From Octopus vulgaris (taxonomy: Eukaryota): a stretch of 64,000 bases of DNA. The notes below the pieces were generated by a model, which saw nothing but the letters and a program-made list of their open reading frames with translations, did not search any database and was not told the origin of the DNA. Location: contig OX597842.1 in the NCBI GenBank assembly GCA_951406725.2, positions 9,238,001 through 9,302,000 of the forward strand, given 5' to 3'. The translations under genes were made by a program, and so were the position numbers. The first letter of the stretch is position 1; every line of letters starts with the position of its first letter. Shown in pieces: positions 33,212-34,200 of this stretch.

Positions 33212-33241
33212 GCGAGAAAGAAGCAACAAGAATGGATAGGT

Positions 33242-33332
33242 TTTTAGTACGATCGTTTCATACAAGGACAGGTTTTATTAAAAGTTGCAAAGATTACAGC
33301 ATATAAACGAGTCCCGTACTCATCAGCTAAAA
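33242..33332 (-). ncRNA. type I hammerhead ribozyme
   Basis: exact reverse complement of 33961-34051. Confidence 0.8.
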
Positions 33333-33960
33333 TACATGTAAGTTCTCTAGACATCCTAGTGTTTGAGGCTATACTCATGAAGTAATGTAGATAATTAAGT
33401 AACATAAACATATTTCAAAAGTTCATTAAAGTTCTTTAAAGATGATGTACAGTCTTATCACAGAATTTTAAGAATGTGAATAGCAGTAATGTGATTAATG
33501 TGGCAAATACCTAATCATATAACAAGGATTGATACCTACCTCATTGTGTTCAACCATTGTAAAATTTATCGCCTGTGAATATGAAATTCATCTCCATTTC
33601 TCTGGAAATTTACATCTACACCATTGGAATCTGTGCATATATACAAAGGATTAATTCACCCTCTCTGTAATGCTAATAAGCAGGAATTGAGACCCACCTC
33701 GTTGTAATTAACAATAGATACATTTGTCTTCTGTGAGTATATAATCCATCATCATATCTCTGGAAATTCATATGTGCACTATGGATTAGGTCACCTTCTC
33801 TGTGATGCTATCAAAACTTTCTTAAAATTCTGTGATAAGACTGTACATCATCTTTAAAGAACTTTAATGAACTTTTGAAATATGTTTATGTTACTTAATT
33901 ATCTACATTACTTCATGAGTATAGCCTCAAACACTAGGATGTCTAGAGAACTTACATGTA

Positions 33961-34051
33961 TTTTAGCTGATGAGTACGGGACTCGTTTATATGCTGTAAT
34001 CTTTGCAACTTTTAATAAAACCTGTCCTTGTATGAAACGATCGTACTAAAA
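33961..34051 (+). ncRNA. type I hammerhead ribozyme, predicted cleavage after GUA at 34045
   Basis: stem I ttttag/ctaaaa; core CTGATGA 33967-33973; stem II gtacgggac/gtccttgtat; GAAA; palindromic stem III acgatcgt. Confidence 0.8.
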
Positions 34052-34200
34052 ACCTATCCATTCTTGTTGCTTCTTTCTCGCTTATAATCACCCCGCATTA
34101 CTGTATTGTTAAATCAGTATAGTTTTTTTTGGTGCATCTAAGTTAGGTACCATATTCAAGTAAATTCATTTAAATTAACTTGAATCTTTATTGCTCTTTG

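Follow-up and report, generated by a model that had tools for sequence, protein, structure and literature searches.

At positions 33212-34200 of the window (the whole 64-kb stretch of DNA that we analysed) lies a foldback cassette embedded in (TA)n repeats, which reads as two 5'-truncated copies of the 3' end of one element. The plus-strand copy (33475-34200) corresponds to the last 726 nt of a 1.75-kb 3' UTR (the pLTR region) and stops at a long end; it is 94-96% identical to the other listed copies and joins an ORF elsewhere. The inverted copy (33212-33474, minus strand) stops at a short end that recurs across loci, with TA following position +36 from the predicted ribozyme cleavage site. 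We found no mismatch between the arms, 33212-33474 and 33819-34081, which are inverted relative to one another (263/263 positions identical), and a BLAST alignment stretches them further (269/271 identical). The right arm alone carries an extra 119 nt (34082-34200, plus strand), which the comparison of ends across loci identifies as the 'tail' of a Penelope-like element (PLE), lying between the short and the long end and present at one end only. Inside the cassette, two diverged repeats with a period of 157 (33519-33782, plus strand) share 73% identity across 107 nt (33519-33624 and 33676-33782). In one full-length copy of the element they span about 150 nt at 70%; they are part of its 3' UTR and are found in further copies. 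The longest ATG ORF on either strand of the cassette has just 55 codons. The first-pass annotation had described near-perfect inverted arms of about 260 bp and a spacer with two diverged repeats of about 150 bp and no ORF, and all of this held.

The flanking (TA)n tracts, the apparent insertion target, extend 3.2 kb to the left (29990-33211) and 1.6 kb to the right (34201-35827) as delimited by TRF. They are interrupted by G on the plus strand, with TATG outnumbering CATA by 103:2 on the left and 93:1 on the right. Because the two tracts share this strand polarity, we read them as a single tract interrupted by the insertion, and for the same reason rejected the idea that the tracts were made outward from each end of the element. 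Flanks of kilobase length, part of the earlier description, are real at this locus but atypical of the family: among 50 element ends followed up to 200 nt outward, the pure A/T run had a median of 27 nt and a maximum of 92 nt. Kilobase-scale (TA)n tracts occupy 29990-35827 and 41842-44134 of the window, with interruptions that show a strand bias, being nearly always G on the plus strand.

Hammerhead motifs and their conservation

Each arm contains a complete type I hammerhead motif. On the plus strand (33961-34051), found by descriptor and alignment, the core runs from CUGAUGA at 33967 through the GUA ending at 34045, and cleavage is predicted after 34045. Stem I has 6 bp (33961-33966/34046-34051), stem III has 2 bp inside an 8-nt palindrome, and stem II has 9 bp with a bulge; in hammerhead numbering, its pair 10.1-11.1 is closed by G-U, not G-C. 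The minus copy (33242-33332, core 33326-33248) was recognised by motif match. A complete type I hammerhead with a 6-bp stem I on each strand is what the first-pass annotation had reported. Its long-looped stem II was also correct as far as it went, the loop of about 41 nt additionally holding a further conserved hairpin. Its palindromic stem III is present here, but a perfect palindrome is the minority form in the family, with 53 exact copies against 931 that carry one G-U change. Cleavage as a dimer, which it gave as known for hammerheads of this kind, does not fit the locus: the two ribozymes lie on opposite strands and no cis dimer is possible.

No such hammerhead motif arose in 20,000 mononucleotide shuffles of 33475-34200. 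In the covariance-model search that the first-pass annotation had proposed, Rfam returned no hammerhead either at the gathering threshold or at E values up to 10, and gave only weak snoRNA and CRISPR matches far under their thresholds. Preferential conservation of the core over its flanks across genomic copies, whose absence had been named beforehand, together with absence of cleavage, as refuting the ribozyme reading, was found: conservation was 0.98 over 12 core columns (C3-A9 with N7 free, G12-A15.1 and U16.1-H17) and 0.71 in the 5' flank, with 0.84 for stem II and its loop, 0.91 for the 35 nt after stem I and 0.88 for the tail. These values come from 17 rows chosen by a tail motif outside the core (16 of 30 loci plus the window; 14 truncated loci were dropped). 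Among the same 17 rows, N7 varies (U in 12, C in 5), as does pair 10.1-11.1 (G-C in 8, G-U in 5, A-U in 4). In 15 related rows that were selected by core pattern, the stems paired in 95% of cells, compared with 18-50% in slid controls. Two-sided changes in those 15 rows affected 3 pairs, a count reached by 114/500 shuffles, and 11 cells, a count reached by 0/500; two of the three pairs lie in the inner hairpin of loop II. RNAalifold offered an alternative in which the 5' core forms many G-U pairs with the segment downstream that also takes part in the leader helix described below, and in the isolated 91-mer the hammerhead fold (-9.0) is not that of lowest energy (-14.3). Metazoan PLE hammerheads cleave poorly in vitro (PMC4209133), and the Poseidon hammerhead of the anole needed protein, with cleavage dispensable for insertion in vitro (PMC11167929).

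About 1,000 hammerhead-bearing ends are present in the genome. Exact 25-mers of the ribozyme 3' half number 984 (931 + 53), with 18 minus/plus pairs among the 53, and a looser core pattern occurs 2,304 times over related subfamilies. The pairs among the rare-variant matches bear on whether the perfect arms could have come from misassembly or faulty reads, or from an inverted duplication that the TA tracts drove after insertion. Kilobase-long low-complexity flanks would invite such an origin, and the absence of mismatches despite a family distance of about 3% could mean later arm-to-arm conversion. Besides those 18 pairs, however, both ends of the cassette fall on fixed family positions, and the short end is seen in contigs of a public run: in X19, a large run from organism B, 19 contigs also exit the element at 34086 into (TA)n, which argues that the cassette end is not an assembly artefact. 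We consider an artefactual or secondary origin highly improbable. The window arms are identical, yet the nearest of 151 sampled arms matches them at only 97.4%. As far as sequence can tell, this combination points either to a divergent source copy or to conversion between the arms.

The parent element and its clade

Searching the 2.8-Gb assembly, in which the window is G000:C29:9238001-9302000, with the cassette gave 1,965 first-look candidates, of which the best 40 were scored; most match just 33475-34200. The first-pass annotation had looked to a genome-wide search for copy number, tandem copies and a PLE partner, and many copies, partial tandems and a coding PLE partner were all found. Upstream of the matching segment, other copies continue through the 1.75-kb UTR into an ORF, which is uninterrupted from its start codon in at least 4 of the 20 loci fetched by RT probe (L042, L053, L054 and L056). 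One intact protein, P0003, has 953 aa, and the element measures 4,669 nt from leader to long end. Its full-length copies are partly tandem, in that the 3' end and its hammerhead are repeated in direct orientation ahead of the start codon (hammerheads upstream of the ORF in L041, L042, L043, L053, L054 and L056), and the distance from cut site to AUG in full-length tandems is 209 nt. The 5' breakpoints vary freely between loci, from -30 to -4390.

These results confirm the tie to Penelope-like pLTRs that the first-pass annotation had drawn, the sequence being continuous with a PLE ORF elsewhere. They overturn its assignment of the cassette to a non-autonomous, ribozyme-processed family, given the intact 953-aa ORF elsewhere and arm lengths that vary from locus to locus. 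A foldback family of that kind, mobilised as a unit, would account for a cassette without an ORF and for four further loci of similar layout (L002-L005). The divergence from the nearest sampled relative (2.6% in the arm, 4.2% in the spacer), with arms identical to one another, would also fit a derived template. Against this, breakpoints differ at each locus, the body runs into an intact ORF elsewhere, the ribozyme is predicted to be sequestered, and no second locus with the same inner junction appeared among the best 40 scored of 1,965 candidates. Mobilisation as a unit is therefore very unlikely. Judged by sequence comparison, the cassette is the 3' UTR end of an autonomous, Hydra-clade-like PLE and not a fixed non-autonomous unit.

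The protein, a reverse transcriptase plus GIY-YIG endonuclease in a single ORF, carries RIRWK at residue 35, ADKT at 123, YRDD at 355, a CxCx5C linker at 814 and VIY/YIG at 833/848, with CxxC and CxH around the conserved E and N at 911 and 941. CCHH is absent from P0003, which has no cysteine pair between GIY and YIG. Against atlas clusters its C-terminal part reached 0.94-0.96; of the four clusters listed, two carry the name GIY-YIG (0.94-0.95). The RT fragment matched Pfam RVT_1 at E=8e-4, under the cut-off of that model; full-length P0003, P0004 and P0005 gave no Pfam match, and a PDB sequence search with the RT fragment gave one irrelevant match (E=0.63). A homolog of the RT query named from Octopus sinensis is 68% identical across 27% of the query. 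Residues 481-810 of P0003, 330 aa between RT and endonuclease, are Asn-rich (30%) and in frame.

Hydra PLEs are defined by RWK, DKG changed to DKT, a CxCx5C linker, CxxC, CxH, loss of CCHH, canonical hammerheads and (TA)n targets (PMC8557442), and P0003 has every protein motif of this definition. Members of the family insert into (TA)n, occur both as tandem copies and as inverted copies truncated at the 5' end, and have the tail at one end. The octopus element thus has in common with Hydra-clade PLEs the RWK, DKT, CxCx5C, CxxC and CxH motifs, the absence of CCHH and the C-terminal endonuclease, and likewise the 3' hammerhead, the (TA)n target and hammerheads on both strands of an inverted copy (PMC8557442). 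It differs in size: Hydra PLEs are generally under 3 kb, a descriptive and not a diagnostic trait, whereas the octopus element has 4.7 kb, the excess being accounted for by the 330-aa region with 30% Asn and the 1.75-kb 3' UTR. Its loop II, which has about 41 nt and holds an additional hairpin, contrasts with 3-10 nt in the listed Hydra loops, and its tail of about 115-120 nt with the 30-40 nt described. Hydra-1_Obim (2,507 bp), compared by eye, has another hammerhead and protein and is a different family. The Neptune clade, our first guess, was dropped after comparison of the protein motifs.

The arrangement of the cassette has precedents. For Penelope-13_HM a hammerhead is listed on both strands, along with an inverted copy truncated at its 5' end (PMC8557442 supplement); PLEs typically show truncated copies in inverse orientation, tailed on one side (PMC8557442); and in Schistosoma dual minimal hammerheads lie 100-700 bp apart on opposite strands (PMC4209133). 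Given Penelope-13_HM, the Hydra PLEs and their (TA)n targets, the cassette architecture must be counted as already published; on sequence grounds, what we describe is a new family of a known clade in that arrangement. As a PLE insertion the cassette is of a known kind; it is valuable because it leads to a young family that has intact ORFs and highly regular ends.

In full-length tandems, the segment at 34057-34069 (13 nt, plus strand) is complementary to the 13 nt that include the AUG, and both end sites fall between the two; the partner is absent at the cassette. This was so at 15/15 tandem junctions, the AUG side of the helix being part of the search pattern (23 matches, 19 of them junctions, 4 without the 5' side, 15 scored). 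We saw no compensatory change, the helix being invariant save for one G-U in two loci, and this invariance means that covariation cannot confirm it. The 13-bp helix is predicted to bury the start codon of the element in full-length tandems and, at a guess, may gate translation versus use of the RNA as a reverse transcription template. A similar GUUG-rich segment follows many of the listed Hydra hammerheads (by eye) and precedes the short end of the retrozyme-like array described below.

A second copy of the focal family lies at 9755-10570 (minus strand) of the window, where a minus-strand arm with a hammerhead (9990-9912) and a long end meets a plus-strand UTR piece head to head near 10175. 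The plus piece stops where the focal sense copy starts (about -570), and several further loci break near -555 to -578, possibly a truncation hotspot. Searching with a Hydra-like protein query (30,098 first-look candidates, best 66 scored) revealed a second, very young Hydra-like PLE family (L227-L256, e.g. G000:C8:60680410-60682419), in which many 727-aa frames are intact, the hammerhead has a short loop and the ends lie near +37 or +108.

Ends of two-armed insertions

The 3' ends of the family fall at two positions, a short one at about +36 to +41 and a long one at about +151 to +154 from the cleavage site; at short ends the element letters stop at +36 and TA-like letters follow. A script classed 94 ends as 53 long, 38 short (one of them a misclassed internal junction of L054) and 3 tandem junctions. 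Among the 40 loci listed on contig C1, 26 were two-ended, 13 one-armed and 1 too degraded to place. We found that each of the two-armed insertions pairs one short with one long end (26/26), an outcome with odds of about 1 in 67 million by simple arithmetic if the ends were chosen independently. The tail may sit on either arm. The 13 one-armed loci are mostly joined to (TA)n on their 5' side; either pairing is not obligatory or one arm is often lost. Related subfamilies obey the same rule in 10/11 mappable pairs, and L083, a related pair, has two long ends. In the second Hydra family we found short-long ends in 2/2 pairs, with ends near +37 or +108 in 29/30 loci. No title or abstract opening in the literature found, a body from which most subscription journals are absent, describes this short-long pairing. 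At 17/25 short ends (L002, L035, L047, L121, L132 and L137-L157) an unencoded G stands between element and (TA)n, possibly a non-templated addition.

The two arms of an insertion also resemble one another. Over 7,427 sites, arm pairs had 71 shared non-majority variants and 43 discordant ones. The window arms share 8 such variants, six of which are absent from all 25 other loci. Together with the end rule (26/26) and the two-strand, two-site starts of Poseidon, these shared variants lead us to prefer a model in which each target strand is primed once, the one at the short and the other at the long site. In that study, of Poseidon from Anolis carolinensis (Frangieh et al. 2024, PMC11167929), both strands were cut and extended and two start sites bound the tail, the start site showing no difference between strands. 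Poseidon and the octopus element have in common an AT-rich target, two reverse transcription starts bounding the tail and a hammerhead near the start codon. Poseidon belongs to a different clade, however, and its ORF starts inside the ribozyme, whereas the octopus ORF starts 209 nt past the cut; a strict one-short, one-long pairing is not reported in the part of the Poseidon article available.

We are confident that an autonomous PLE with Hydra-clade motifs gave rise to the cassette by a head-to-head insertion truncated at the 5' end, the hammerheads of the cassette being two copies of a single 3'-terminal motif that likely stem from two reverse transcription events on opposite nicked strands of (TA)n. 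How those events would proceed we can propose with less assurance, though the following course seems to us the probable one. The GIY-YIG domain would nick both strands of the (TA)n target; the two 3'-OH groups would each prime a cDNA on the same or sister element RNAs, one starting from the short site and one from the long site; and both cDNAs would stop early, their truncated ends then being joined head to head. The ribozyme would act in transcripts of full-length tandem copies, and its cut there would release an RNA whose AUG is preceded by a structured leader of 209 nt. Read-through RNA of the focal locus is predicted instead to fold into a hairpin of 263 bp, in which the ribozyme is concealed and which ADAR would edit.

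Alternatively, a single cDNA could have been made, the second arm arising by self-priming, fold-back or template switch and the tail from resolution by the endonuclease, a route proposed in PMC3846280 and PMC8557442. Shared arm variants would follow equally from this route, a single act of resolution would likewise put the tail on just one end, and several junctions are near-symmetric hairpins (L138, L139, L146 and L035), with a small hairpin in L130. A plain fold-back copy, by contrast, should give equal ends; most junctions are asymmetric, that of the window joining -229 to -570 (from the cleavage site); the tail can sit on either arm; and the tail ends coincide with the Poseidon reverse transcription start sites observed in vitro. 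We regard a single cDNA as a real but distinctly less probable origin of the second arm. The Penelope of Adineta vaga (PMC3846280), like the octopus element, has inverted pLTRs, an optional tail and Asn-rich inserts between RT and endonuclease; it differs in having target-site duplications and a 31-bp tail, while in the octopus (TA)n hides any duplication.

A neighbouring retrozyme-like array, transcripts and other features

The right edge of the TA tract that houses the cassette is also the start of a retrozyme-like array. Its inverted arm of about 1.2 units (35828-36428, minus strand; hammerhead 36131-36041) has a slightly shortened long end, as indicated by motif and end mapping. It is followed by 10 tandem 491-nt units (36432-41333, plus strand; TRF and descriptor) whose short end runs into (TA)n, and 9/10 of the units have a type I hammerhead by descriptor. 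The repeat gave 1,331 candidates on many contigs, of which the best 40 were scored. We examined 37 arrays, 21 chosen as both-strand (the window's included) and 16 that were the remaining identifiable ones. Head-to-head organisation was found in 33/37, the other 4 being one-armed, and all 33 pair an end at about +131 with an end at about +237. In four cases an end falls short of these positions (at +111, +125 and +177, and at about +220 in the array of the window), and (TA)n follows almost every array end.

With tandem type I hammerhead monomers and genome-wide dispersal, the 491-nt repeat conforms to the description of metazoan non-LTR retrozymes (PMC7229834; 10.64898/2026.07.22.740005), although its unit is longer than the quoted 150-450 bp. 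The focal cassette shares the type I hammerhead with retrozymes and differs in having no tandem same-strand monomers: it has one hammerhead per strand and variable breakpoints, and is part of an ORF-bearing element. No coding partner for the 491-nt repeat was found: its best match to the focal family had E=0.5, and to the second Hydra family, among the best 66 of 30,098 candidates, there was only 47 nt at 74% (E=0.097). PLEs have been proposed as mobilisers of animal retrozymes on the basis of co-occurrence and sequence similarity (PMC7229834; 10.64898/2026.07.22.740005), and the discussion of Li et al. 2026 considers both local amplification and PLE hijacking (10.64898/2026.07.22.740005). In the available text of that paper the word 'tail' is absent and 'inverted' occurs only in a reference title; in that of Cervera and de la Pena 2020 (PMC7229834), 'inverted' and 'orientation' are absent. 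Head-to-head, two-ended insertion of retrozymes is likewise not described in the titles and abstract openings found, with most subscription journals outside that coverage.

The array carries a PLE insertion signature on a non-coding tandem element, and its sequence suggests PLE-driven insertion of retrozymes. The shared signature (head-to-head arms, a short and a long end, a TA target) is direct genomic evidence on who mobilises retrozymes, and the integration of PLEs themselves has been described as largely unresolved (PMC8557442, PMC11167929). The end rule and its sharing with retrozyme arrays, as read from sequence, likely record how both are inserted, and this is the part most worth pursuing. 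A bolder reading, to which we give slightly better than even chances, is that PLE insertion is always paired and that retrozymes use the same machinery in trans. A single complex would prime both cDNAs on the nicked target strands, invariably one at the short and one at the long site of a structured leader, and link them head to head. Each array would then arise at once from two cDNAs of several units each, plausibly copied from circular RNA, with no later local expansion, and every two-armed insertion would be a ready-made perfect dsRNA. If this were true, Hydra PLEs and retrozymes would be a large source of ADAR substrates in the octopus genome.

ADAR prefers long dsRNA. The cassette RNA has a predicted fold of -541 kcal/mol in which 79/79 core-spanning nucleotides pair with the other arm, and the antisense arm is transcribed first, whichever strand is read. 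A read-through transcript is thus predicted to bury the ribozyme in dsRNA. Among listed differences in RNA-like runs of organism A, A>G made up 14/26, 19/44 and 15/43, compared with 3/24 in X19 (organism B); these runs are public contigs that are not on record as RNA and not matched to DNA of the same animal. In the three RNA-like runs of organism B, at a 15% threshold, A>G was not in excess (1/15, 3/13 and 1/15 places, against 1/9). Neither set of runs had sites at which many molecules start or stop, although contigs do not record RNA ends. Dense A->G changes were seen by eye in 30-nt loose contig ends (8/11, 7/11 and 7/11 in X1, X9 and X12, with one site each in X9 and X12 coinciding with a DNA variant), and one 30-nt end of X1 had T->C at 10/15, also by eye. 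These four ends are among the loose contig ends shown, beyond which lie 49 + 38 more. Such clusters fit hyper-editing of both strands. Because the reads carry family-type variants, the signal speaks for the family and not for the focal locus. The dsRNA and ADAR-substrate scenario of the first-pass annotation is borne out as a prediction by the fold and by these editing-like clusters. With its ribozyme hidden in a predicted, edited hairpin, the focal copy is likely a dead end. Heavy editing has been published for a lizard Penelope and for octopus generally (PMC5625713), and two-armed insertions are a specific candidate for where the abundant near-perfect dsRNA and the hyper-editing described there come from.

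No host gene is evident in the list of open frames of the 64-kb window. Tandem arrays at 44197-45707, 50341-51222 and 14897-15445 have units of 130-131, 106 and 42 nt, and none contains a hammerhead by descriptor. Open frames at 5241-6833, 27767-29566, 51531-57641 and 18198-19161 resemble what we take to be non-LTR reverse transcriptases and a pogo-like transposase. A 621-aa open frame at 24450-26315 (plus strand), preceded by Asn-rich frames and bearing the RT-like motifs DKSG, YPSID and YVDD, presumably belongs to another Penelope-like element.
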